Shown one piece after another: positions 22,225-63,058 of a stretch of 64,000 nt of DNA; the stretch's first letter is position 1, and every line of letters starts with the position of its first letter. The position numbers and the translations under genes were made by a program. This stretch comes from an uncultured Vampirovibrio sp. (lineage in GTDB: Bacteria > Cyanobacteriota > Vampirovibrionia > Gastranaerophilales > Gastranaerophilaceae). The notes beneath the pieces are model-generated. The model worked only from the letters and a program-made list of their open reading frames with translations, was not told the origin of the DNA and searched no databases. The stretch covers positions 72,104 to 136,103 of the forward strand of contig CAJTXT010000005.1 in the NCBI GenBank assembly GCA_910583875.1, in the 5' to 3' direction.

Positions 22225-22361
22225 AATAAATAAATAATTTATCTACCAAAGAAAGATTTCATTAGACTTGTAGATATTTTTTCGGGTAATTAGTTTTTTT
22301 ATAAAAATAATTGGGGTCTTGTAATTTTTTTTTGAGCATATAATAATATAAATAGCTTTAT

Positions 22362-22435
22362 GGCAAGGTAGCTCAGTTGGCGAGAGCGCACGGCTCATAC
22401 CCGTGAGGTCGAGAGTTCGAATCTCTCCCTTGCTA
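22362..22435 (+). tRNA. tRNA with CAT anticodon (Met, or Ile2 if lysidinylated)
   Basis: Cloverleaf folded by hand. Acceptor ggcaagg/ccttgct (G1:U72), D arm gctc/gagc, anticodon stem cacgg/ccgtg with loop ctCATac, T arm gagag-ttcgaat-ctctc, discriminator A. Confidence 0.85.
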
Positions 22436-22467
22436 TTTTTATTTGCTTTATTTTGGGCTAATTCGGG

Positions 22468-22860: not shown

Positions 22861-24573
22861 TCATTCGCTAGCTTGTTGATTTGGAAGTTCTGGATTTAAA
22901 TCAATGCCATCAACCCAAGATAATTTTACATTATAACCAAATCCTTTTAAATCCGTAATTATTTTGTCCAAGGCTAACTTACTTATAAAAGTAAGTTTAT
23001 TCTCTCCTTTATCATTAATTATTAAGTATCTAATAGTATAATCTTGATGTGCATTCAAAGAATTGTTTAATCTATGCTTAGGATTATCAAGTTTATCATT
23101 TACACTCGGGACAAAGACTTCTTTCATTGAGGCAAATGCTCTTGCCGAAACATAACCTTGATTAAACAAATGACTCAGATTTGCAGCTTTAGTACCTATT
23201 TTAGAATGAATAAATTCTTTTTTATTAGGTTCGAATATATCACAAATTTCCATTTTATCGCCATCAATGGTAATTTGTTTATTTATTTGATCTAACAATT
23301 CTCCATTCAATTGATTACAAAAGTTTCTATTAAAAATCCTTTCTTTATCAATATGTTTAGTTTCATTTATTTTTTCATTAAGTATTTCTTGAGTAGTATT
23401 ATGTTTTACAGTTTCATCTACTTCTATTGTTTCGCCAATGTCTTCAATATTTTTATTTATTCGTTCATATTTATCAGTAGATAAGCCATACCATACTGCA
23501 TTAGACAGAATATAAACCTGATTATCAAGTTTAAGTTCTCCATATAAACATTTTAATACAGACCATTCTTTGTATTTATTACCTTCTTCATTTAACAAAA
23601 TTATTTTATCTTGATTTAAATTAAGATTTTCTGGAGTTTCTCTTAAGCCAAGATAATCATTTAAAGATAATTTTTCAAATGGTTCAGAACTACGAGAATT
23701 TTCTGCAAGTTTATATTTAATGCTCGAAACAAGAGTTGAATCATAATCAATTTCAGGTTCAAATAAAAAGAAATTTGAGTCTTCCTCTGTAAGTTTATCT
23801 TTTAATATTTCGTTTAATTCTTTCTGTTTTTGGCTCGATAACGGTCTAAGACCTTTAAAAAACTTATTTACAATATCACTATTTATTTGCACATTTTTAT
23901 ATAAATCTAATAATAAACTTAATCTATCATCTAAATAATTCCAACAAGGTATTTCTGATTCTTTAAATCTCATTTTTATATTTAATGGTCCGTATTTGCC
24001 TATAACGGAACTTATTGTTGATGAATCCGCAACTGCATTTAAATGTCTAACTATATCATTATCTTCTAATTCTGCATTAAAAATTTCGTTTGATAGTTCT
24101 TGTGCATTTTGAAATTCTGTATTTCTAGGATTGCTTGATATGTTGCGAGTTCCTGCTCGTCTGATTTTTGCACCTTGATCAATCAAAGCCATTGCTGTAT
24201 ATATCCCAAACGTATCCTCTATTTTGTCTTTTGTTATGTTATGTCTGCCTTGTCCAAAATTTATTGCAAATAGGTATTTTTGATTATTATGTACAATTTG
24301 TTTTATTACAGTAAGTCCTTCGGCTGCGGTATTTGCAAATTTATCTTTAATGGTATCTTTTAAGATTTGCTCATCAAATTCTATTACCCAAGCTGGTTTT
24401 TGTCCTGCGCGTCCATTCTTATATAGAAAATAATTATCATTTTCTTCGCCACCTAAAATAACATTACTTTCTTCATAGTTTTCAATGTAATTATCTCTGC
24501 TATTAAGATTACAGTCTGCTTTTAGTAACATAATGTTTAAGTTAACTGTTTTTACTTTTTCTTCTTCCGACAC
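22861..24573 (-). CDS. 570-aa orphan, possibly a TIGR04141/DUF6119-like 'sporadically distributed' protein
   Basis: GTG start behind GGGAG. N-terminal 'LNIMLLKAD'. C-terminal 'ICDIFEPNKKEFIHSKIGTKAANLSHLFNQG' resembles a nuclease motif. The family name is from memory and was not searched. Confidence 0.35.
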   Translation of the reverse strand: MSEEEKVKTVNLNIMLLKADCNLNSRDNYIENYEESNVILGGEENDNYFLYKNGRAGQKPAWVIEFDEQILKDTIKDKFANTAAEGLTVIKQIVHNNQKYLFAINFGQGRHNITKDKIEDTFGIYTAMALIDQGAKIRRAGTRNISSNPRNTEFQNAQELSNEIFNAELEDNDIVRHLNAVADSSTISSVIGKYGPLNIKMRFKESEIPCWNYLDDRLSLLLDLYKNVQINSDIVNKFFKGLRPLSSQKQKELNEILKDKLTEEDSNFFLFEPEIDYDSTLVSSIKYKLAENSRSSEPFEKLSLNDYLGLRETPENLNLNQDKIILLNEEGNKYKEWSVLKCLYGELKLDNQVYILSNAVWYGLSTDKYERINKNIEDIGETIEVDETVKHNTTQEILNEKINETKHIDKERIFNRNFCNQLNGELLDQINKQITIDGDKMEICDIFEPNKKEFIHSKIGTKAANLSHLFNQGYVSARAFASMKEVFVPSVNDKLDNPKHRLNNSLNAHQDYTIRYLIINDKGENKLTFISKLALDKIITDLKGFGYNVKLSWVDGIDLNPELPNQQASE

Positions 24574-24737
24574 AACTCACTCCCTAAATTTGTAATTGAT
24601 ATTATCATCTTACATATAAAAGTAGAGATTTTTAGAAAAATTAATTATTTTTTAAGGTTTGATAAATCTAACATTTTAGATTATTTACTTTAATTGCATT
24701 TAATGTTGTTATTTTGTCGTATAAACCTTATGTTAAT

Positions 24738-25814
24738 TTATTTTATGTAATCTAAATATTCAAGCAATTTTTTCTGCTCAAGATATTTCATGTAGCTTTC
24801 CATGTATTCGTAATCAGGTTCACCAGTATCAGTAACTGGTAAAGTTAGGATTTCTTTTTTTAATCTAGTATCGCTTCTTTTGTAATTGAAACTATACTTA
24901 CCCCGAACTCTATCTGCAATTGTAGTAATAAACATACCAGAATATTTGTTTAGTTTATTGTTATAACCAACTGTAATATCTGATGTAGCAATAAAATCTT
25001 CGGATTTATATATTGAATACCCCATTGAGCCCTCTCCGTTGCGAATAAATGCAATACAGTTCCCTTTTTGGATTAGATATTCATTTCCAGCCTTTTCTAC
25101 AAAGCAAAGAACTCCATTATTCCTATTAGTTGCACCTAGATAAGGTATTCCTTGTTCATGTACTTGTTCTAAGTGATTCAAGCCTTTACTTTTGCCTGCC
25201 ACTAATACTGGGAATATAGCTTTTATTCTAAAATCACACCAACTTTTATTATCAATAATGTTCTTTTTTAACTTCTTTAATTGAGTTAGCTTAAGAACTT
25301 TGTATTGTTCTTTAAGTTTAATTTCACGCTCTTTTATATATTCTTCCATAAATTCGTAATCAGGCTCACCTTTTGAATTTATAGGTAGCATTATCTTGGC
25401 TCTTTTTAATCTGTCACTATTAAATAAATAGCCATAAGAAGCCTTGTTAAGTGCGGTATTTTCTATAGTTTTACATAAAAATAATGCAACATATTTATTT
25501 AAATCTTTTTTATATAAAAGATTTATAGAAGCACCACTAAATCCTCTACCAACAAAGTTATATTCGTGAAAAAAAGCTTTACCCTTAATCGGATCAATAG
25601 AAATAGCATTTTTTGAACTTATGCATCTTTCATTCGCTTTTACAAAAGATATTAGTCCATTATTCAATGTAGAAGTTGAAATATACGGTATATTTCCATC
25701 AATATAATTTTCTATAGGTTTCCCGTACACATTTTTGATTTCAAACAATTTGCAAATCTGAAAATCTTTCCATTCTCTGTCTTTTAAAGATTTAACCATT
25801 TTTACCCTCATCAA
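24738..25814 (-). CDS. R-M specificity subunit (HsdS-like, BcgI-B-like) with two target-recognition domains
   Basis: 358 aa. Internal duplication: 'PINSKGEPDYEFMEEYIKEREIKLKEQ' and 'PVTDTGEPDYEYMESYMKYLEQKKL' end the two halves. Confidence 0.8.
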   Translation of the reverse strand: MMRVKMVKSLKDREWKDFQICKLFEIKNVYGKPIENYIDGNIPYISTSTLNNGLISFVKANERCISSKNAISIDPIKGKAFFHEYNFVGRGFSGASINLLYKKDLNKYVALFLCKTIENTALNKASYGYLFNSDRLKRAKIMLPINSKGEPDYEFMEEYIKEREIKLKEQYKVLKLTQLKKLKKNIIDNKSWCDFRIKAIFPVLVAGKSKGLNHLEQVHEQGIPYLGATNRNNGVLCFVEKAGNEYLIQKGNCIAFIRNGEGSMGYSIYKSEDFIATSDITVGYNNKLNKYSGMFITTIADRVRGKYSFNYKRSDTRLKKEILTLPVTDTGEPDYEYMESYMKYLEQKKLLEYLDYIK

Positions 25815-27714
25815 ATAAATAGGCTCTGCCTTGTGCTATCATTGAGAACTCAAATGTTAAATAATCAGCAATTGTTTTGTTAAAATCTTTTTCTGTTGGT
25901 ATTTCGTCATTAAAATAATAAAAAGAGTGTAACCATTCGTCAGTTGGTTCAATAGTAGATTTAACACAGAATTTTGTAGGAGCTTCAATTCTATTAAACC
26001 ATACATCTAACAAATGTTGTTTCTTGTCTTTAGCATATTCTGTTTCGACTAAGCCAATGTGTGGAGATACTTTGAAACCATCGTCCTTGAAATCAATAAA
26101 TTTACATTCTTTATCTTTAGGATGTGGTTTATGTGCTGTAAATATAGCTATACATGGATTAGTTCCCACCCCATAAAAAGTATCGCCACTTAAAGTAATT
26201 ACCCCTTCTAATGTGTGGTGCTTTAGAATGTTTTCCTTATAGTTTTGTTCATCTTTTGTTTTGCCAGTTAAAGATGATTGAGGAATAATAACCACAACCT
26301 TACCATCTTCTGCCAAGGAATCTAATAAATGTTCGACAAAACTAATTTCATATAATGACGGATTCGCTTTAGAACCTTGACTATAAGGAGGGTTCATCAT
26401 ACCAACATTGGCACCTTTAAGTTGCAATTCAGCTTCATTGCATCTTAAAAAGTCTTCATCTATTAAATTGCTTTTGCCATCACCACGTATAATCATATTT
26501 GTTGTAGCAATAGTAAACATATATGGTTGAAGTTCTATACCATGAAGCTGATTTTTACGGATACTCTCTTTTTGTGTTTCGGTTTTGGCTTTCTTTAACA
26601 TATTATGCATTGCAGCAATTAAGAATCCCGCCGTACCACAGCAAGGGTCAAAAACAATATCATCAGGTTTTAAGTCAACAAGATCACAAAATAATTGAGT
26701 TATATGTTTAGGTGTTAAAATTATTCCTAATGTTTGCCCATCACCTCCTGAATAACTCATAAATTCACCATAAAATCTTCCAAGATAATCTTCTGCAGTT
26801 TTTGTATATTTTATGGTTTTGTAAATATTATCATAAATTTGTTCAGCATAGTATTTTAAAGGAGTTTTACCTAAAATTGGGTTAATTTCATTTAAAATCT
26901 TTGTATCTTTAATAACTGCAAATTGAGTTAATAGTTTATCTTTTTTTACAGTAGGTGAAACTTTAGAACGTTGTAAATTTTTATCAATGGCATTATAAAT
27001 TTTATTTCCATCTGTGTCTATATCATCCCCTATAAGTTGTTCAAGATTAAATGACCCTTTTTCAATTTCTCGAAGAGCAAGCAAGATTCCAGAAACAACA
27101 AGAGGCTTCTGTGTATCTTGCAAATTACCATAATTTCTTAAATCCTCATGTAAATTTTTGGCGAATTTAAGAATTTCGGTTGTTTCTTTTTGCAAATCAG
27201 TGTTTTCGCCGAGAATTTCTCTTGTATAATATTCGTCGATATTTTCTTCATTAAATATATAAAATGATTCGACATCTGGCATTATCTTGCAATACTCACG
27301 TTCATTTATAAATAGAGGTGTAATTTTGTGATGTTTTTCATTTCCAGAAACACCAAATGCAATGATCTTTTTATAATTAGTATTATTTATAAGATGTTTT
27401 CCATAAAAGTAAGCACCATTTACTGCGTATTGTCCGACAGATTTAGTATCTGTACTTATTAAATTCTTGTCATCATATTTTACATGTTTTGATAGATCTG
27501 ATTTATCTTCAATGACAAGTATAAAATCTTTCACAACTCCAACATACTCCGGAAAACCAACATTTCCAGTACCTTTCTTTGATGCTGTTTTTAATGCTTC
27601 GTCAATTTCTTTTATTGAACAGCCTTGTGGGTCTAAACAGATTTTTGCTTCTTTTAATAAATCATAAACCCATAAATCAGTTTTGACTTCCTTTTTTGCC
27701 ATATCATATACCAT
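25792..27714 (-). CDS. fused endonuclease and N6-adenine methyltransferase subunit (BcgI-A-like, Type IIB)
   Basis: 640 aa. N-terminal PD-(D/E)xK-like 'GFPEY-x12-VIEDK'. SAM motif 'VFDPCCGTAGFL'. Catalytic 'MNPPYSQ'. Overlaps the S-like gene by 23 nt. Confidence 0.7.
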   Translation of the reverse strand: MVYDMAKKEVKTDLWVYDLLKEAKICLDPQGCSIKEIDEALKTASKKGTGNVGFPEYVGVVKDFILVIEDKSDLSKHVKYDDKNLISTDTKSVGQYAVNGAYFYGKHLINNTNYKKIIAFGVSGNEKHHKITPLFINEREYCKIMPDVESFYIFNEENIDEYYTREILGENTDLQKETTEILKFAKNLHEDLRNYGNLQDTQKPLVVSGILLALREIEKGSFNLEQLIGDDIDTDGNKIYNAIDKNLQRSKVSPTVKKDKLLTQFAVIKDTKILNEINPILGKTPLKYYAEQIYDNIYKTIKYTKTAEDYLGRFYGEFMSYSGGDGQTLGIILTPKHITQLFCDLVDLKPDDIVFDPCCGTAGFLIAAMHNMLKKAKTETQKESIRKNQLHGIELQPYMFTIATTNMIIRGDGKSNLIDEDFLRCNEAELQLKGANVGMMNPPYSQGSKANPSLYEISFVEHLLDSLAEDGKVVVIIPQSSLTGKTKDEQNYKENILKHHTLEGVITLSGDTFYGVGTNPCIAIFTAHKPHPKDKECKFIDFKDDGFKVSPHIGLVETEYAKDKKQHLLDVWFNRIEAPTKFCVKSTIEPTDEWLHSFYYFNDEIPTEKDFNKTIADYLTFEFSMIAQGRAYLFDEGKNG

Positions 27715-29014
27715 CCTTTAAAATTTCATCAAACTTGCTTGCCATGTACAATGGAATATTATAAAGCCCATTGTTTATCTCAAAATTCGCAAGTGAAGTT
27801 CTTATGCTTATCTCGGGTTCAAATTTTTCTCGATAAACCTTAAGACTTTTTGCTTGTAAATTTGTATTAGCTTTCACTTCAACAGGAATAACATACCCGT
27901 CAGTTTGAATAATAAAATCAATCTCAGCATTTCCAGACTTACTTATCCAATAAGCAATTTCCATATCTTCAATAGTTTTTAATTGTTGCAGTACGTATTG
28001 TTCTGCTAAAGCACCGTTAAATTCTGTAAAAATTTTATCTCCTTCAATCAAAGTTCTTGCTGGAAGCTTACTTAATGCAGATAATAAACCTACGTCTAAA
28101 ATAAATAATTTAAATGCTTTGGTGTCTTCATATGCTTTTAATGGTAAAGCAGGTTTTGTAATACGGTTTATTTTATAAACCAGTCCACAATTAATAAGCC
28201 AAGATAAAGCTTCCTCAAACTCATCTGCCCTTGCTCCGGATTTTATTTTTTTATAAACAAACTTCTTACTTTCTTGAGTTAATTGACTTGGAATTGACTC
28301 CCATAGTAAATCAAGTTTCAACTTGCCAGTAGAAGATATATGTTTTGAGAAATCTCTTGTATATGCATCTAAAATATTTTCTTGAACCTTACGAACTTTT
28401 TGAAAATCATTTGTTTCAATAAATGTACTAACCACTTCTGGCATTCCGCCAACGTAATAATATTTTTTTAACCATTCAATATACTTTTCTTTAAAAACTT
28501 TTATATTAGGAGATTTAGGACTTTTTAGTAATTCTATAAAATTACTTTCACCAATGGCATCTAAAAATTCTAAAAATGATAGAGGATATAAATCAAGAAA
28601 ATCTACTTTTCCAACCGGAAAAGAAACATTCTCATGAATAGCAACTCCCAATAAACTGCCAGCTGCAATAATATTATATTCTGGAGTGTTTTCATAAAAA
28701 TATTTAAGAGCCGTTAAAGCTTTTGGGCATTCTTGAATTTCATCAAGTATTATTAGTGTTTTTTGGGCATCAATTTTAGAATGGGTTAACTCCAAACCTT
28801 CAATAATTCTTTTTGTATCAAAATCTATTGAAAACAGATCACACATTAACTTGTCTAATTCAAAGTTTATATAAATAACCTTTTTGTATTCAGTTTTGCC
28901 AAACTCTTTCATTAACCAAGTTTTGCCAACTTGACGAGCCCCTCTGATTATCAATGGTTTTCGTTTTGAATTATTCTTCCATTCTATGAGCTTATTTATT
29001 GCATATCGTTTCAT
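27704..29014 (-). CDS. AAA+ ATPase (AAA_14/DUF4143 type) with a C-terminal PD-(D/E)xK-like motif
   Basis: Likely start 'MKRYAINKLIEW' (the ORF track extends to 29065). Walker A 'GARQVGKTW', Walker B 'LIILDEIQ'. C-terminal 'AEIDFIIQTDGYVIPVEVKA'. Confidence 0.75.
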   Translation of the reverse strand: MKRYAINKLIEWKNNSKRKPLIIRGARQVGKTWLMKEFGKTEYKKVIYINFELDKLMCDLFSIDFDTKRIIEGLELTHSKIDAQKTLIILDEIQECPKALTALKYFYENTPEYNIIAAGSLLGVAIHENVSFPVGKVDFLDLYPLSFLEFLDAIGESNFIELLKSPKSPNIKVFKEKYIEWLKKYYYVGGMPEVVSTFIETNDFQKVRKVQENILDAYTRDFSKHISSTGKLKLDLLWESIPSQLTQESKKFVYKKIKSGARADEFEEALSWLINCGLVYKINRITKPALPLKAYEDTKAFKLFILDVGLLSALSKLPARTLIEGDKIFTEFNGALAEQYVLQQLKTIEDMEIAYWISKSGNAEIDFIIQTDGYVIPVEVKANTNLQAKSLKVYREKFEPEISIRTSLANFEINNGLYNIPLYMASKFDEILKDGI

Positions 29015-29203
29015 ATAATCTCTCTCAGTATATAACTTAACAAAAATTAATAATAAATAACTCATCCGAAAATACGATTTTACATTTTTTTAAACGACTT
29101 TTGAGAAATTTATAGCATTATATCAAATGACTTTGAGTGGTAATATTACATTTTTATTAACTACTTTTTCTAAAAATAAAGTTACTTAAAAATAACGTTG
29201 CCC

Positions 29204-29292: not shown

Positions 29293-30255
29293 TTAATAAT
29301 TTTTTAAATTACTTTCCATATATTGTTTATACTCAGCTTGCAGTGATTTTGGTGCAATAATTTTGCAGCCGCTGCCCCATTTGAATACATGCCAAATGAT
29401 TTCTAAGCTTCCGCTTGCTCTAAAAGTTACAGTATAACTACCGTCCGTATTATATTTACCCCTTTGTGTCGGATGGAAATTGAATTGACTCGCTTCCTGT
29501 GCTAGTTCAGGTGAAAACAAAAGTTCAACATCAAGAACTTCACCGTGATACACACCAAAAGACTGGTTTGTATATTTTTGCAAGTTAAAATCACCTTTAT
29601 CAAATGTTTTATCGGTAAGTTTTAATCCTTCAAATTTATGCAACAAATAGTTATAAATTCCATTACCTTTGGCTTTTTCCCTTGCAACAAGATAAATCTT
29701 TTCTCCGTAAATCATTCCAAGAGGTTCAATTAATCGAATTTTATCGTTATAAATTCCATTAACCATTTTTGAATGTTGAACAGCTTCCCGAATAATTTCC
29801 AGCGTTTCTATACTAATCTTATATTGCGGCATTTGGCGGACTGCATAACCTTCTGTTTGCATATACAGTTCAATATTTGTTTCAAGAGAATTTGCATTTT
29901 TACGGTTAAATGTCTTAATTTTTTCAACTGTTTTGGCTAATTCTGCTTTCATTTCTTTATTCGTTGTTCTGCGTTGGCATTGCTCAATATTTGCTATCTC
30001 TTTAGGAGAAAAAGAAATCAAATTTGAAATTGAATAGTTTATAAATCCCCAATGTTTTTGAGAATCGTTTGTTTCAATTTCATCAACAGACGGAAAAATA
30101 CAAGTTAAACTATCTCTCATTCGTTCTGCAGTCCTTCGTGAAACATTATATCGTTCTGCAATTTCAGAAATCGTTACCCCTTGAATTTTTGATGACATAA
30201 AAATTGCCAAATCTAAAATATCTGAAATTCGTGAATATCTTGGTTTATCTTGCAT
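29293..30255 (-). CDS. HTH plus WYL-domain transcriptional regulator (BrxR/CapW-like architecture)
   Basis: 320 aa. wHTH 'VTISEIAERYNVSRRTAERMRDSL'. WYL-like 'YNDKIRLIEPLGMIYGEKIYLVAREKAKGNGIYNYLLHKFEGLKL'. Confidence 0.7.
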   Translation of the reverse strand: MQDKPRYSRISDILDLAIFMSSKIQGVTISEIAERYNVSRRTAERMRDSLTCIFPSVDEIETNDSQKHWGFINYSISNLISFSPKEIANIEQCQRRTTNKEMKAELAKTVEKIKTFNRKNANSLETNIELYMQTEGYAVRQMPQYKISIETLEIIREAVQHSKMVNGIYNDKIRLIEPLGMIYGEKIYLVAREKAKGNGIYNYLLHKFEGLKLTDKTFDKGDFNLQKYTNQSFGVYHGEVLDVELLFSPELAQEASQFNFHPTQRGKYNTDGSYTVTFRASGSLEIIWHVFKWGSGCKIIAPKSLQAEYKQYMESNLKNY

Positions 30256-30344
30256 AATTATTCCCCTTGAAATTATTATAGCACAATATGTCCGTATTTG
30301 TCGCAGATATACGTTAAAATGATAACAAAATAAGGAGATAATAT

Positions 30345-30932
30345 ATGGATAAAATTAAATTATTAATCAAAAATAGAGAACAAGATACATTCGCAATACA
30401 TTATGCCTGTGAATGTTTTTATAATGGCGGTGCTATTGCACCTTCTATTTGCTCAATCAGTATTGTAAATATGAGAACAAACAATCTGCATACATTTGCA
30501 TTGCATAATTATATTTTACAAGGGAAATCATTGATTGATAGTGAAAAACAATTATTGTTAGATTTTGTTGATTTTTACAAATCATTGAACAATCCAATAT
30601 TTATTCACTGGGCAATGGATAGTTTGCAATACGGATTTAAAGCTATTTTTGCCAGAGCTGAAAACTTTGGAATATATGATTTTGATTTATCAAAAATGCA
30701 AGATATAAATCTAAAAAATTATATTGATTTATCACTTATAAGAAGTTTAGAAATGAATAATTGCAAGAGAATTTCTGTTCTAAACGGCAAAGATGAGGCA
30801 ATAAGTTTTGATAAACGTGACTACAATTTAGTCAAATTATCGACAGAAGGTAAAGTTTTAGGAATATTAGAATTATTTGAAAAATATCTCAATAATGATT
30901 TAGTTGAATTAGATGATGATGTAATCTACTAA
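30345..30932 (+). CDS. hypothetical protein, cassette gene 1
   Basis: 195 aa, SD site AAGGAGA. No confident domain. An RNase-H-like strand/helix pattern is only a guess. Confidence 0.5.
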   Translation: MDKIKLLIKNREQDTFAIHYACECFYNGGAIAPSICSISIVNMRTNNLHTFALHNYILQGKSLIDSEKQLLLDFVDFYKSLNNPIFIHWAMDSLQYGFKAIFARAENFGIYDFDLSKMQDINLKNYIDLSLIRSLEMNNCKRISVLNGKDEAISFDKRDYNLVKLSTEGKVLGILELFEKYLNNDLVELDDDVIY

Positions 30933-30940
30933 AGGTTAAA

Positions 30941-31861
30941 ATGACATATCTGAATATAATAAATAAAATTAATAAAGAATACGGAGTTGAACTCAATGAA
31001 GACGATATCAAAAAAATAGTTTTTGGTATACAAAATAAAATGTGTTATTTTTTAACTAATCCTAATGATTTGAGTAATTCAAGAATTGCAGTAATTGTTA
31101 AATATGGACAAAATCTTATTAAACTTATCACTTATCATGATGGTTCGATAGTTTGTGTTTTACCATGTAATCATTCACAAAATGCGGATATGTTAAATAT
31201 TCCTGATATTAAAAAAGAAATTGAGTTATTAAATAAAATTGAACTAAAGAATTTAAGTCATATTTGTGCATATTGCAATAAGGCTTTGAAACCGGAAGAA
31301 AAAACAATAGATCATATCATACCAAAATCAGCTAAAGGGAAAAATATTGTTGATAATTATGTTATTTGTTGCTCAGAATGTAATACAAAAAAAGCAAATT
31401 ATGATATTAATTCTTATTTAGAAGCTAATGATAAAATTGCTTATTGTTTTGATAATTATTTACAAATGATTGATAATCAAAGAAAAAACAAGTTTTATTC
31501 AAAATTAATTAAACAACATATCAAAGAACATATTTTCTCAAAGGCAAAAAAATACCAATTATATCGAAATGAGCGAATTAATCAAATACAAGATATAGAA
31601 TATAAAATAAAAGGTAGTTCTATTTCTTTTAAAATCAATAAAACACAAGCAAAAATTTTAGATTTTTATCTTGAAAATAAAGATTTTACTGAATATAAAT
31701 TATTGGCAAAACAATTAAAAATTAGTAAAAGCGAATTACAAACACATATTACTCATATCAATTGTTTAACAGGAATTTTTATACTTAAAGAAGTGAGTAA
31801 AAATGGTATCAGATTAAATGGGTTATATAAAGATAAATTAGAAATTATTAAACAAGATTAA
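30941..31861 (+). CDS. HNH endonuclease-domain protein with a probable C-terminal HTH, cassette gene 2
   Basis: 'CAYCNKALKPEEKTIDHIIPKSAKGKNIVDNYVICCSECNTKKAN'. C-terminal 'AKILDFYLENKDFTEYKLLAKQLKISKSELQTHI'. Confidence 0.75.
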   Translation: MTYLNIINKINKEYGVELNEDDIKKIVFGIQNKMCYFLTNPNDLSNSRIAVIVKYGQNLIKLITYHDGSIVCVLPCNHSQNADMLNIPDIKKEIELLNKIELKNLSHICAYCNKALKPEEKTIDHIIPKSAKGKNIVDNYVICCSECNTKKANYDINSYLEANDKIAYCFDNYLQMIDNQRKNKFYSKLIKQHIKEHIFSKAKKYQLYRNERINQIQDIEYKIKGSSISFKINKTQAKILDFYLENKDFTEYKLLAKQLKISKSELQTHITHINCLTGIFILKEVSKNGIRLNGLYKDKLEIIKQD

Positions 31862-31904
31862 ACAATTTTACATTAAAAACGTTATATAATTCAAAGGAGT
31901 TTAA

Positions 31905-33083
31905 ATGAAAAAGATAAGTTTATTGATGTTACTTTTAATCTTTAGTACAATCTCTGCGTGTGCCTATTTTCAAGTTAATGAATTTAAACTGGTACAAAAT
32001 AATAATACAAAAATCTGTCAAGCATTTGAAGATGGTTATGTTTGTGGAAATGAAGAACCTGTTTATTATGAAAATTTTAAAGAAACTTTTTTGTCACTAA
32101 AAATTAATTATTGGAATATGGACGGGGAAAAATGTTTACGTTTAAAGCAAGGATATAAATGTTCTAATGAAACTCCTGTTTTTTGGTTTAAAGGCAAAAA
32201 AGGAATATTAATAAAAGATAATGAAGGTAATGAGCAAATATGTTCATTGAAACGCGATGGCAGTTATGAATGTCCTCAAAATAATGAATTGTATAGTATG
32301 CTTTTACCTTATGGAAATTGGGAATTTATAAGAGAAGAAGGCTTTTGGAAGGTTAAATACACACAAGGTTGTATAGGCTACAAAAACGGTTATATTTGCC
32401 CTAGTGAAGAACCAAGATTTATCAAAGATTTTAGAAGCAGTTTTGATTTTTCCATCTCAGAACAAATGTCAAATGATGTGAAAGTAAAAAATGGAATACC
32501 TCTAGATAAAAATTGTTATGAATTGAGTTTGGGTTATTATTGTACTGGAGAAATGCCTGTAATAAATAAGGTATACAAAATTGATGAACATCGCGGTATT
32601 TTTGTATCTGATAAAAACAACCCAGGTAATAAAAAAATATGTAAACATTTTACGTTTGATGAGTACATTGATAGCGGATATAAATGCAAAGGTGAAGAAC
32701 CGGTTATAACCAAAAGACCTACCACAATAAAATATAACGGCAAATCAAAGTTTCATGGTAAAGTTGAAGAAATGCGCAAAGGTATAATTGCAAATTATGG
32801 GTTAGTTACTTGTAATCAATATAAAGACGGTTATGTTTATTGTCCCGGTGAAGAAAATAATCCTAAAAAGTATGCTATGACTTATGATTTAACGCCGGAA
32901 GAATTTAGGAAAGCAGGAAAGGAAGCCGAACGCAACAAAACGGCAACGGAACGGTTAAAAGAGAGCCTCAATAAAGGTCGTATTTATATGCGTGATAAGA
33001 ATGGAAAAAGAACCGAATATAAAATTAATCCTTATACAATCGATAGGAATTCTTTGGAACTGATACCGCGTTGGTCGCATTAA
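31905..33083 (+). CDS. lipoprotein with six Cys-containing 'C..x..GY.C..E.PV' repeats, cassette gene 3
   Basis: Lipobox 'STISAC'. Repeats EDGYVCGNEEPV, KQGYKCSNETPV, KNGYICPSEEPR, SLGYYCTGEMPV, DSGYKCKGEEPV, KDGYVYCPGEEN. Confidence 0.7.
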   Translation: MKKISLLMLLLIFSTISACAYFQVNEFKLVQNNNTKICQAFEDGYVCGNEEPVYYENFKETFLSLKINYWNMDGEKCLRLKQGYKCSNETPVFWFKGKKGILIKDNEGNEQICSLKRDGSYECPQNNELYSMLLPYGNWEFIREEGFWKVKYTQGCIGYKNGYICPSEEPRFIKDFRSSFDFSISEQMSNDVKVKNGIPLDKNCYELSLGYYCTGEMPVINKVYKIDEHRGIFVSDKNNPGNKKICKHFTFDEYIDSGYKCKGEEPVITKRPTTIKYNGKSKFHGKVEEMRKGIIANYGLVTCNQYKDGYVYCPGEENNPKKYAMTYDLTPEEFRKAGKEAERNKTATERLKESLNKGRIYMRDKNGKRTEYKINPYTIDRNSLELIPRWSH

Positions 33084-33116
33084 TGAATTGTATATGATTA
33101 ATTAAAAGGAATTTAA

Positions 33117-33506
33117 ATGAAAAAGAATCGTCTATCTAAAGCAAAAAATCAAACTTATCATTTCAAAAAAAGATGTGATGAAAGATTAGGTGTACAAATT
33201 GATAGAAAAGCAATTCAAAGACGAATTAATGAACAAAAATTTGACGAGCACTTTTATTTTTTAAATAAACAATCTAATAGGGTTTCCAGATATCGTTACA
33301 GATTTCAAGATAAATGGTATATCATTCCTTACGACAGAAATACTCATAAAGTTATAACAATATTTGAAGACAATAAACAAGATATTTTTACAGAAACTAA
33401 AACTGATATTATTACTAAAAACACTAAAAAGAATCCATTCAACTGGTTTCAAAAACTTATTCAATGTTTTAAGGATATAAGTACATCAATTCATAAACAA
33501 TGTTAA
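33117..33506 (+). CDS. small basic protein, possibly a DUF4258/BECR-fold toxin, cassette gene 4
   Basis: 129 aa. 'YHFKKRCDERLGV' follows an H-x3-R-x2-ER pattern, then beta-rich 'WYIIPYDRNTHKVITIF'. Confidence 0.35.
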   Translation: MKKNRLSKAKNQTYHFKKRCDERLGVQIDRKAIQRRINEQKFDEHFYFLNKQSNRVSRYRYRFQDKWYIIPYDRNTHKVITIFEDNKQDIFTETKTDIITKNTKKNPFNWFQKLIQCFKDISTSIHKQC

Positions 33507-33691
33507 TAGTATTATTTTGAAATAAATAAAAACAGCAATAATACAGGGTTAATGAAATCTGAAGGTACAACAATTATTCTGCACAAGTATAAAGATATAT
33601 GCATATTAAACAATGAAAAAATAATATGTAAAGGAATCAATAGGGTTGACGTATATAAATATGAAATTAATTAAAATTATGAGGTTTTAAA

Positions 33692-34885
33692 ATGAAAAAA
33701 GATGATGAATGGCAAGCAAAATATTTTTATACATCTACAGAACTTAACAATTTTATTGAACCGTTGAAATCAAAATTGCTTGGTAAATCTATAGATAAGA
33801 TAATGATTACTGGACATATTTATACAAGTTGCGGATATGATGACAAAGAAAATTATTGTGTTAAATATTCCTGTGATGAAAAATGGGTTATAGAAGACAA
33901 CAACGTTGAAAAACAAATCCAATCATTACCAACTCATAAAGTTTCTCTTTCTTTAGATGATCCATTGATTTTATGTTTTGGCAATATTCATTTTGAAATA
34001 AATTACTGTGAATTTAGTAATGCACAAATTGGCATAAATACATTAAATTCTATGAGTAATGCTGATTGGCAAGATGTTAGTGATTATTTTGTCAAGAACA
34101 TTATTGGAAAGAAATTATTAGATATAAAAATAAATCAAACTTGTATACCAAATAAATACACTTCTCACTACCGAAAAAATGGTGAAAAAATGTATGATGA
34201 AATAGTTTTTGTATTTGAAAATGGCTATCAATTAGAAATATCTTCGGATATAGATTATATGTCTTTAGCTGAAAGAATTATATGGCAAGAACAGCAAGAT
34301 TTAGCACAAAGAGATTGGGATTGTTATTATGATTCAAAGCAATATTTGGATGATAATGAAAAAACATTCAAAGAGCTAATTGCTGAATCAATTCCGATTA
34401 ATGGTAATAATATGCGAATAACCGCTAATGATGAATATTCCACTGGATTTCTTGATTACTATTTTGAAATAAATAATAATGGTATTATTAGCAAATGTTA
34501 TTATGGGTTTGCTATTAACAATATGAATTTTCTTTGGAATTTCGTAGAAGCTATGGTAATGTCAAAAAATGATTGTTATTTGTGTTGTGAAGAAGAAGGG
34601 CCAGAAACATATTTTTATATACAAAATCTAGATGATGATAAAATTAGATTTATACATATTAGTAATAGAATACAAGACGAAGGTTTAGTGACTGAAGACT
34701 ACAAAGTTCGTCAAGATTTTATAACAAGCAAATATAATTTTATAAAACAATTTTATACTTGCCTAATACAACCGATTAGACATTTTAATAAAACTAATAT
34801 GAGCAAGGTATGCTTGGATGAATACAATGAATTTTATAAAAATTCAATAATTGTAAAAAAATATTTGGAACTTTATAATTGTTAA
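33692..34885 (+). CDS. hypothetical protein, cassette gene 5
   Basis: 397 aa, SD site GAGG. No recognisable motif. Confidence 0.5.
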   Translation: MKKDDEWQAKYFYTSTELNNFIEPLKSKLLGKSIDKIMITGHIYTSCGYDDKENYCVKYSCDEKWVIEDNNVEKQIQSLPTHKVSLSLDDPLILCFGNIHFEINYCEFSNAQIGINTLNSMSNADWQDVSDYFVKNIIGKKLLDIKINQTCIPNKYTSHYRKNGEKMYDEIVFVFENGYQLEISSDIDYMSLAERIIWQEQQDLAQRDWDCYYDSKQYLDDNEKTFKELIAESIPINGNNMRITANDEYSTGFLDYYFEINNNGIISKCYYGFAINNMNFLWNFVEAMVMSKNDCYLCCEEEGPETYFYIQNLDDDKIRFIHISNRIQDEGLVTEDYKVRQDFITSKYNFIKQFYTCLIQPIRHFNKTNMSKVCLDEYNEFYKNSIIVKKYLELYNC

Positions 34886-34915
34886 ATACTCGTTTTTACT
34901 GTTACAAATAATCAT

Positions 34916-35908
34916 CTAAAGTATTTTTTTACATTTTTCCAAGATTTTAGGAAGAAGTGAATTCCACGCTGCTTCTTTTGGATGTAAATTATCTTGCATT
35001 AAATATTTTTCGGAATTTAAGTCTTCTTGCGTTAAATCATCGGTGCTTATTACCGTAAAATTATTCTTTTCAAGCTTTTCTTTTAAAATATCCTCAAAGT
35101 CTATCTTATTATTATCATATAATATGACAATAAAATTAATTTTTTTATTCCATCTTTTTTCTAAACAATTCCGTGTTTCAACTAAATATTTAACAGCTAA
35201 ATCAGTCAATTTATCAGCATTCTTTGGATTTTTTATATAACTATCAACATATTTGCAATTTATAGCTCTTACAATATATGATGATTTAATTAAATTAAGA
35301 AATATATTATTATAATTATCCTTTACTAATTTATTATTTTTAATTTTATATCTTAAATAGAAATTCCCGCCGATTACATCAAAATCACTAAAAATCGACA
35401 TTCTTAGATAATGGTCATTTATCATTACATAAAAAATGGTATCTGATATTGGAACATCTTTATAAAAACTTGAATTTTCTTCTGAAACCTGATAATACAT
35501 ATGCTGTAAACTAGCTCCTGGTATGGCTCTGTTATATACTGGTCTTTTTAATTTATGAGCTAATTTATAACTAAAATTTTGATTGTAATTCAGATATTGA
35601 CCATGAGCAAAAGAATCACCAAAAATTATTATAGGTTTCCCTTTTTTATATTCTAATCCATCAGGCTTTCTACCATTAATTATATTGTCTTTACCGTTAA
35701 AATACCCATCCAAATTTATAAATGTTATATGAGGATTTTTTAAGTAATACCTATATGGAGGGATAAATGTAGATAACGGATGCTCTTCCAAATATTTTTT
35801 AGGGTTTAATGCAATTCTATAAGTTAAATAATCCGTAATAAAAAATAAACATATTAATAAAATTATATTAAAACTAACTAATAATATTATTTTTAAACTT
35901 TTGTTCAT
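34916..35908 (-). CDS. membrane-anchored SGNH/GDSL-family hydrolase
   Basis: N-terminal TM segment. Block I 'IIIFGDSFAHG'. Block V 'DNLHP'. Confidence 0.6.
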   Translation of the reverse strand: MNKSLKIILLVSFNIILLICLFFITDYLTYRIALNPKKYLEEHPLSTFIPPYRYYLKNPHITFINLDGYFNGKDNIINGRKPDGLEYKKGKPIIIFGDSFAHGQYLNYNQNFSYKLAHKLKRPVYNRAIPGASLQHMYYQVSEENSSFYKDVPISDTIFYVMINDHYLRMSIFSDFDVIGGNFYLRYKIKNNKLVKDNYNNIFLNLIKSSYIVRAINCKYVDSYIKNPKNADKLTDLAVKYLVETRNCLEKRWNKKINFIVILYDNNKIDFEDILKEKLEKNNFTVISTDDLTQEDLNSEKYLMQDNLHPKEAAWNSLLPKILEKCKKIL

Positions 35909-62680: not shown

Positions 62681-63058
62681 ATGTTATTCGATTTCCTAAA
62701 ACAAAAGCATGAATGCCAGCATAAGAATGTACCAATAGATGTTGATGAAGCATACTGCCCTGATTGCGGAGCATTAGTTAAAAACAAATGGTACCTTGTT
62801 CGCTGCAGCTGCTGCAACATAAAACGCAGCGCACATACGCAATATAATGAAATAAAACCGGACTCTAAATACTGCCCAAACTGCGGTGCTACAGATTTTT
62901 ATGTCCAAGAACTTGATAAAGTTAATTTTATGGATATTCATTATGCAATTTATAAAAAAGTTATAATACCGCAAGGCAATTGCACCACACGTCAAATATG
63001 GATAGAAAAGGAGGAAAATCTATTACAGGAGAAAAAACTCATAGGGTTTAGGAATTAA
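62681..63058 (+). CDS. double zinc-ribbon protein
   Basis: 'CPDCGALV...CSCCN' and 'CPNCGATDF'. 125 aa. Confidence 0.55.
   Translation: MLFDFLKQKHECQHKNVPIDVDEAYCPDCGALVKNKWYLVRCSCCNIKRSAHTQYNEIKPDSKYCPNCGATDFYVQELDKVNFMDIHYAIYKKVIIPQGNCTTRQIWIEKEENLLQEKKLIGFRN

Follow-up and report, generated by a model that had tools for sequence, protein, structure and literature searches.

Does a run of five tightly packed genes behind a regulator amount to a system? We asked this of a locus in an uncultured Vampirovibrio sp. (assembly GCA_910583875.1, contig CAJTXT010000005.1), in a stretch of 64,000 nucleotides that is called the window throughout. Here five plus-strand open reading frames (ORFs), g1 to g5, are transcribed divergently from the gene of a WYL-domain regulator, and a preliminary description had put the five forward as a candidate novel system. 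We favor another explanation, to which we give a probability of roughly 0.7. According to this, the WYL protein is an activator of the DriD/DdaA type that responds to single-stranded DNA (ssDNA) and works through a box-dependent promoter whose transcript is led by g1, and g2 to g5 are passengers that can be exchanged.

The five ORFs, their lengths, the gaps of 8, 43, 33 and 185 nt between them and the 89-nt spacer that separates g1 from the divergent, minus-strand WYL gene were re-derived from the sequence and agreed exactly with the preliminary description. When each gene was compared with its nearest orthologs, the ratio of nonsynonymous to synonymous substitution rates (dN/dS) was 0.08–0.35. 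This indicates purifying selection on all five, and the ORFs are therefore real genes. The window matches identically a contig of the metagenome-assembled genome (MAG) GCA_949927535.1. For comparison, 66 clusters of g1 homologs were aligned and gave 34 species-level genomic loci (labeled L0xx), the source of the related loci being gut MAGs of Candidatus Melainabacteria / Gastranaerophilales. The related loci were inspected as neighborhoods of approximately 20 kb and their contents were compared by tblastn and ORF clustering.

Judged by its sequence, the WYL gene product is a DriD/DdaA-type protein and a close relative of DriD. In a phmmer search its top match in the PDB was DriD of Caulobacter crescentus (9pfq, 8tp8; E=1e-39 over residues 6–307), whereas no BrxR or CapW chain was among its PDB matches at E≤1. 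The homology is full-length and the order of parts, a winged helix-turn-helix (wHTH) domain, a helical bundle, WYL and WCX, is that of DriD/DdaA-type activators. Pairwise alignment showed no differences between the two proteins in the recognition helix RRTAERMRD, which carries the base-contacting residues R37, E40 and R41 of DriD (PMC10853764). Across 28 loci the WYL protein is 61–92% identical with a dN/dS of 0.04–0.14, and it is conserved more strongly than g1 (44–93% identity). The regulator, g1 and the sites between them are laid out as follows, where HTH stands for helix-turn-helix, PWM for position weight matrix and AF2 for AlphaFold2.

29293–30255, minus strand: DriD/DdaA-type wHTH-WYL-WCX transcription regulator, predicted (Pfam WCX 2.6e-10, WYL and HTH; phmmer against the PDB)
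30275–30304, minus strand: promoter-like site of the WYL gene, GCGACA-18-TATAAT with TG, its −35 within the box (consensus scan)
30287–30306, plus strand: DriD-type box TATGTCCGTATTTGTCGCAG, core TGTC-N7-GTCG, PWM score 30.3 bits, common to the divergent WYL and g1 promoters, with its forward orientation facing g1
30315–30320, plus strand: TAAAAT as the −10-like hexamer of the g1 promoter, separated from the 20-mer box by 8 nt (read from the sequence)
30332–30337, plus strand: ribosome-binding site AAGGAG of g1 (read from the sequence)
30345–30932, plus strand: g1, 195 aa, conserved first target of the box, with a predicted RNase H-like / PolB-type 3′-5′ exonuclease fold that lacks the DxE motif (AF2 model and Foldseek)

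The PWM was trained on 24 distinct instances (consensus TACGTCCATATTTGTCGTAA) and used with a threshold of 14 bits, at which 0.33 hits are expected by chance per 64 kb. The site at 30287–30306 is the only strong box in the window. A weak box-like match of 14.1 bits (TCTATCCATATTTGACGTGT, 62987–63006, minus strand) lies within an ORF and is at chance level.

In the related loci, an element of approximately 20 bp is common to the regions upstream of g1 and of WYL. In 28 loci it is found some 44 nt before g1, and it adjoins the WYL gene in nearly all. Where the two genes are divergent they share a single box and where they are apart each has one. A −10-like hexamer is found exactly 8 nt past the 20-mer, in one orientation only, in 60 of the 63 distinct boxes from approximately 40 related Gastranaerophilales loci, and the forward orientation of the box points in every case away from WYL and towards the neighboring gene. 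The −35 position of the g1 promoter falls within the box and reads CCATAT or TCCATA; this is a poor match to TTGACA, as in DriD-dependent promoters. The preliminary description had read the divergent arrangement as a regulator facing its target. Based on the box in the spacer, its orientation towards g1 and the fixed spacing of the −10-like hexamer, this reading of the sequence is strongly supported. Further boxes precede genes for MORN-F8, an unassigned 445-aa protein, a g2 fragment and g5, a WG-repeat protein, an MBL/RMMBL hydrolase, RlaP and hsdR. Stand-alone MORN and g5 genes also have boxes of their own, with the WYL gene more than 8 kb away or absent.

The WYL gene is beside or near g1 in 28 of the 34 g1-anchored loci; of the remaining six, three are truncated at the end of a contig. 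The only trace of g2 in the 34 loci is a 93-aa fragment in L008. We found g3 in two (L006 and L008), g4 in three to four (its carriers are L006, L007 and L014) and g5 in one to two. Taking in the contexts anchored on g2, g3 and g5 as well, no other genome has more than three of the five genes together; all five occur together in the same strain only.

The pair of WYL and g1 is kept through three arrangements, which argues for a functional link between them. In the arrangement seen in the window, the two are divergent and variable cargo lies behind g1. In seven loci (L009, L010, L016, L018, L019, L029 and L037; e.g. L010:8568–12394), g1 and its box lie 91–151 nt upstream of type II cas9-cas1-cas2 and a CRISPR array, with WYL convergent at the far end. 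Because there is no separate box ahead of cas9, the damage-responsive promoter of g1 may also drive Cas9 in these genomes. In the third arrangement, MuA-like, TniB-like, integrase-fragment and HTH genes are followed by g1, which is convergent with WYL, and WYL is divergent from MORN-F8-RlaP. The slot taken by the cargo in the window is filled elsewhere by a MORN-repeat protein, RlaP, a metallo-beta-lactamase (MBL) nuclease or type II CRISPR-Cas. The features behind g1 in the window are these.

30941–31861, plus strand: g2, 306 aa, HNH endonuclease (Pfam) with an unassigned N-terminal domain and a possible C-terminal HTH
31887–31923, plus strand: shared cassette leader and start, TAATTCAAAGGAGTTTAAATGAAAAAG..., found again at 33099–33135 before g4 (direct repeat D1, 84%)
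31905–33083, plus strand: g3, 392 aa, predicted exported lipoprotein with seven Cys-pair repeats (lipobox and repeats)
33117–33506, plus strand: g4, 129 aa, small basic protein of a widespread family with an alpha-alpha-beta-beta-beta core (family alignment, AF2)
33552–33674, plus strand: 40-aa ORF MKSEGTTIILHKYKDICILNNEKIICKGINRVDVYKYEIN, which covers the greater part of the 185 nt that separate g4 from g5 and is called as a gene in one public assembly of this sequence (L002/L005)
33692–34885, plus strand: g5, 397 aa, with 25 homologs

Alignment of the DNA of L006 with the window showed that the two are collinear through WYL and g1, that positions 30940–31858, the g2 ORF, are missing from L006 as a precise indel of 920 bp, and that collinearity resumes over g3 and g4 before the sequences diverge. 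In L007, g3 is deleted and g1 is followed directly by g4. The order in L008 is g1, g3, g2 fragment, g5. The cassettes have a leader of approximately 50 nt and a ATGAAAAAG start in common, and the same leader is found ahead of g3 in L006 and of g4 in L007. It is plausible that this shared leader and start is a substrate for recombination. Together, these comparisons of gene content suggest that g2 to g5 are interchangeable single-gene passengers and not a conserved unit.

Just past the g5 stop, a stretch of approximately 50 bp (34884–34936, a 53-bp match) recurs in L008 and L006, where it closes the variable region on the right in spite of their different cargo. It was not found in loci more distant than these. 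Because it is confined to the two closest loci, we rejected it as a general boundary element.

We propose the following mechanism, modeled on Caulobacter DriD. A dimer of the WYL protein would bind ssDNA built up by DNA damage or phage attack and its wHTH domains would thereby be freed. These would bind the 20-bp box at 30287–30306, which occupies the −35 position of a promoter that has a −10 but no usable −35, and the bound protein would recruit RNA polymerase towards g1. The transcript would start approximately 18 nt before g1. Because no terminator beyond chance was detected inside the cassette in a crude scan, it would probably read through into g2, g3, g4 and perhaps g5. Single-gene cassettes, g2 to g5 among them, would be inserted, deleted and swapped behind the g1 promoter, some of them having their own box in other genomes. 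With g1 as the only constant partner of the regulator and g2 to g5 as cassettes, we therefore take the locus to be a local, variable part of a damage-inducible regulon, placed in a defense-rich island by a tRNA-Met gene, and not a five-component machine.

Several points count against this explanation. The residues with which DriD contacts ssDNA appear to be kept in part only: in the alignment Y192, Y240, R178 and R288 are kept in the WYL protein and R204, W206 and R207 are not. A box over the −35 is a layout that would also be expected of a repressor such as CapW or BrxR. In the 185-nt gap ahead of it, g5 could have a promoter of its own, a terminator scan of this kind is crude at a G+C content of 27%, and the boxes are known from neighborhoods of approximately 20 kb only.

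The second of these points leads to an alternative in which a defense island is repressed by the WYL protein in the manner of BrxR/CapW. Here g1 and its cargo would be anti-phage effectors that are silenced until ssDNA from an infection frees them. The box does cover the −35 of both divergent promoters, CapW also senses ssDNA (PMC11662680), and defense genes are found all around, both in related loci (CRISPR-Cas9, an MmeI-like IIG enzyme, AbiE, DpnII-like restriction-modification (R-M), GmrSD and type I R-M) and in the window, where they form one block.

22861–29065, minus strand: PDC-S01 ATPase (AAA_14/DUF4143, 1e-181), N6-methyltransferase with a IIG-like N-terminus, S subunit (Methylase_S) and DUF6119, downstream of WYL (Pfam, PADLOC)

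This block bears out the neighboring R-M operon of the preliminary description (N6_Mtase, Methylase_S, DUF6119 and PDC-S01). Among the loci compared it is unique to the window genome and absent from all others. We consider the repressor unlikely, however, given the match to DriD at E=1e-39 as opposed to no BrxR or CapW chain at E≤1 and a published tree that sets DriD and DdaA apart from BrxR and CapW (PMC12392091). Moreover, targets without a −35, a fixed distance from box to −10 and a single orientation are typical of recruitment-type activation (PMC13004042), and from this we infer activation rather than repression. None of the box-driven cargo matched a PADLOC model. We also considered the WYL gene as a BrxR-like repressor that heads the minus-strand R-M operon. 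This was dropped after the PDB comparison, and the PWM scan found no box in the spacer between WYL and PDC-S01.

The activator reading leaves the nature of its constant target, g1, to be considered. This protein had been called an orphan, which it is not, since it matches phrog_8766, a phage family of unknown function, at 7e-22. A 262-aa relative with 34% identity is encoded by Streptococcus phage Javan494 (L051, 2777–3565) in the lysogeny module, between a cI-like repressor and an excisionase and on the integrase/repressor strand. This relative is common to 17 Streptococcus prophages, and the DriD-type box is not present by it in Javan494.

The AF2 model of g1 (pLDDT 90, pTM 0.88) matched the 3′-5′ exonuclease domains of family-B polymerases in a Foldseek search of the PDB (E=3e-5, TMq 0.65), and viral exonucleases and YprB-like proteins of the RNase H fold in BFVD. 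A search of PDB sequences with the g1 family profile gave nothing significant. The modeled beta-beta-beta-alpha-beta-alpha-beta-alpha fold, with TMq 0.65 to archaeal PolB exonuclease domains, is shared with stand-alone PolB-type and YprB-like RNase H-fold exonucleases. By contrast with these, g1 does not belong to any Pfam or NCBIfam family, has I-H-Y-S/A-C in place of D-x-E and conserves His and Cys, not carboxylates. Thus, the fold of the DEDD 3′-5′ exonucleases is present, but the Exo I D-x-E and the carboxylate tetrad are not found in an alignment that is not structure-based. In that alignment, strand beta1 (residues 15–22) has an acidic residue in none of 59 sequences. Across these sequences H19 and C36 are invariant, C22 and H88 are nearly so, and E151 is the sole invariant carboxylate. 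We therefore regard g1 as a predicted exonuclease-fold protein with a non-canonical site, possibly a His/Cys metal site.

These phage relatives bear on a further alternative, which is that the cassette is mobile-element or prophage debris made up of a phage-family g1, a homing-type HNH g2 and morons that have no common function or regulation. Like g1, which has phrog_8766 and the Javan prophages as relatives, g2 has links of this kind; its HNH region is 31–39% identical to proteins encoded by one confirmed viral contig (L055/L057) and by three further contigs from metagenomes. Genes for a Mu-type transposase (rve plus Mu-transpos_C), a TniB-like AAA ATPase, an integrase N-terminal fragment and a Terminase_5/DUF1804 HTH protein lie directly upstream of g1 in L012, L014, L015, L017 and L020 (e.g. 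L017:62–2809), and a transposon-like island with MmeI-like and AbiE cargo may carry the module in some genomes. The same tRNA-Met is found just upstream of the WYL–g1 module in four lineages (window 22361–22436, plus strand; L027:6331–6415, where it is approximately 50 nt from the g1 box; L031:968–1043; and L026:665–717), which suggests a conserved chromosomal hotspot. Against this, no integrase, transposase or structural gene lies near the cassette in the window, there is no tRNA-Met-derived att repeat or element end around 22.2–36.2 kb, and the transposition and cargo families of the related loci do not occur in the window. Purifying selection acts on all five genes, the geometry of box and promoter is kept across all architectures and the module in L052 has housekeeping flanks. 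Debris is thus quite improbable, and the genes do not resolve into prophage structural genes, which was the alternative fate that the preliminary description had foreseen for them.

One dedicated, novel multi-component defense system made of all five genes under WYL control would fit the tight same-strand packing with no internal terminator detected, the one regulated promoter in front and the defense-island setting, but on gene content it is largely refuted and can hardly be right because it fails the test of co-occurrence in other genomes that the preliminary description had itself set (at most three of the five genes together in any other genome, and all five in the same strain only), g2 is gained or lost as a precise indel, L007 has a deletion of g3, g5 and g2 have boxes of their own elsewhere and there are no PADLOC hits.

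If g2 to g5 are passengers of a DriD-type promoter, what they encode is of interest one by one. Among Pfam, NCBIfam, PHROGs and PADLOC, the only families matched by the five proteins were HNH (g2) and phrog_8766 (g1); g1, g3, g4 and g5 had zero matches to Pfam, NCBIfam or PADLOC families. PADLOC 2.0 also matched none of the other box-driven cargo genes in related loci. For the five genes it gave nothing past generic HNH similarity.

The HNH core ascribed to g2 was confirmed. Residues 109–153 matched Pfam HNH_5 (2e-10), HNH (2e-9) and HNH_4 (4e-8), all past the cut-offs, and contain the beta-beta-alpha-Me HNH motif with its Cys pairs. For the probable HTH tail the C-terminal match is sub-threshold (HTH_Mga, E=0.015), which leaves an HTH there as a possibility only. 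In L052, which has no g1 at this place, a full-length homolog of g2 (65% identical) directly faces away from WYL and has MORN-F8 behind it. In other genomes g2, like g5, has its own DriD box. Septu was considered for g2 and rejected: PtuB models cover the 50-residue HNH core only (E=5e-6), and there is no PtuA match and no adjacent same-strand ATPase.

The proposal that g3 is a Cys-repeat lipoprotein was correct as far as prediction goes. It has a signal peptide, MKKISLLMLLLIFSTISAC, with the lipobox ISAC at residues 16–19 and Cys19, which fits the pattern [LVI][ASTVI][GAS]C, and seven C-x8-14-C repeats ('GYxC..EEP'). There are only three clusters of g3 homologs, with a dN/dS of 0.19–0.35, and a 45% identical homolog lies by itself in an island of GmrSD, RlaP and type I R-M genes.

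The family of g4 has 143 representative clusters and the motif K8 H15 R19 R23 G25 ... Y72 D73 T81. It had been likened to DUF4258, a likeness that was not confirmed, since none of 58 family members matches DUF4258 at E≤1; a Pfam scan of every member gave nothing consistent and the family profile found nothing significant among PDB sequences. The AF2 model (pLDDT 87) has no significant fold match, the best PDB match being at E=0.23 and RelE (1wmi) at E=0.5 with a TM of 0.26–0.35. With RelE/BECR proteins, g4 is compatible in its alpha-alpha-beta-beta-beta topology only, and neither the family profiles against Pfam and the PDB nor the fold search lend statistical support to the earlier suggestion of a small toxin. 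For the g5 family, a profile search gave no PDB match and a Pfam scan of every member nothing consistent, and for neither g3 nor g5 were relatives of known function detected. Homologs of g5 occur alone among housekeeping genes (L040), behind a MORN protein with its own box (L045) and directly divergent from WYL (L042).

The boxes by RlaP genes (L012:7494, L015:14795, L017:7673, L020:14796, L036:3141 and 4046) are followed by a similar non-coding stretch with no obvious ORF start, which reads …gatacggtaatctcc… / …gatactgtaaatctcg…. In L042 (330–6223), a second and longer WYL protein (408 aa) is encoded divergently from an RNA-repair cluster of DUF2828 (TROVE-like), RtcB and RlaP. A box-like site of 19.6 bits lies between the two, and the cluster is directly upstream of the g1 / WYL / g5 module. 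For the stretch that follows the RlaP-linked boxes, possible explanations are a conserved leader and a small RNA, tied to the RtcB / RlaP / Ro-type RNA-repair genes of L042.

The DriD-type reading would extend SOS-independent, ssDNA-sensing activators of the DriD/DdaA type to uncultured, Cyanobacteria-related gut Melainabacteria, with a DNA code that is essentially that of Caulobacter; within the literature that was searchable, no paper ties DriD to Melainabacteria. The box, followed after 8 nt by a −10, is a candidate sequence handle for a damage/infection regulon in Gastranaerophilales genomes. The reading also flags g1, g4, g5, the MORN/F8 pair and the Cys-repeat lipoprotein as unannotated families that are likely to respond to damage or phage. 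We also offer, tentatively and as something that may well prove wrong, the idea that the Gastranaerophilales activator and its portable 'box plus −10' promoter form a plug-in module by which acquired single genes, and even type II CRISPR-Cas operons, are brought into a DNA-damage/infection alarm regulon. In this case g1 would be the obligatory first responder, either an enzyme of an undescribed His/Cys type with an RNase H fold or a binder of ssDNA ends, and by lying ahead of cas9 it would render Cas9 damage-inducible. More generally, tight packing behind a regulator does not imply a system.

Among known systems, the nearest is DriD of Caulobacter. Its consensus is ATACGAC-N7-GTCGTAT, with ATACGTCCGTTTCTGGCGCA as the site at didA (PMC10853764). 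In cryo-electron microscopy DriD covers the −35 position, with its distance to the −10 fixed, and recruits RNA polymerase, and at its own bidirectional promoter the operon activated by DriD is the divergent one and not driD (PMC13004042). The window has the full-length homology, the DNA-reading helix and the box class CGxC-N7-GxCG with an AT-rich center in common with it (PMC10853764), as well as a box over the −35 at a fixed −10 distance in a bidirectional promoter and oriented to the divergent target (PMC13004042). The differences are the phylum (Melainabacteria / Gastranaerophilales as opposed to Alphaproteobacteria), the three ssDNA-contacting residues that are not kept and the targets. 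Those of Caulobacter are didA, bapE, recA, recJ and dnaG, whereas those found here are accessory and variable (g1, HNH, MORN, RlaP and MBL nuclease).

With BrxR and CapW, the WYL protein shares the wHTH-WYL-WCX architecture, a position at the head of defense-rich islands and probable ssDNA sensing (PMC9122601, PMC11662680). It differs from them in having no PDB match to either at E≤1, as compared with 1e-39 for DriD, and in a promoter geometry that suggests activation.

DdaA of Moraxellaceae, the sister clade of DriD, has CGWCA-N5-TGWCG as its motif, and Cas and R-M loci are under its control along with repair genes. By its published motif it is close to the box described here, CGWCC-N5-TGTCG (PMC12392091). 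DdaA takes the place of SOS across the genome, whereas what can be seen here is a local island, and no repair genes were seen under the box in the window or the related neighborhoods. Like the Cas and R-M targets of DdaA, however, cas9-cas1-cas2 is headed by a box-led g1 in seven loci and hsdR is preceded by a box in L042.

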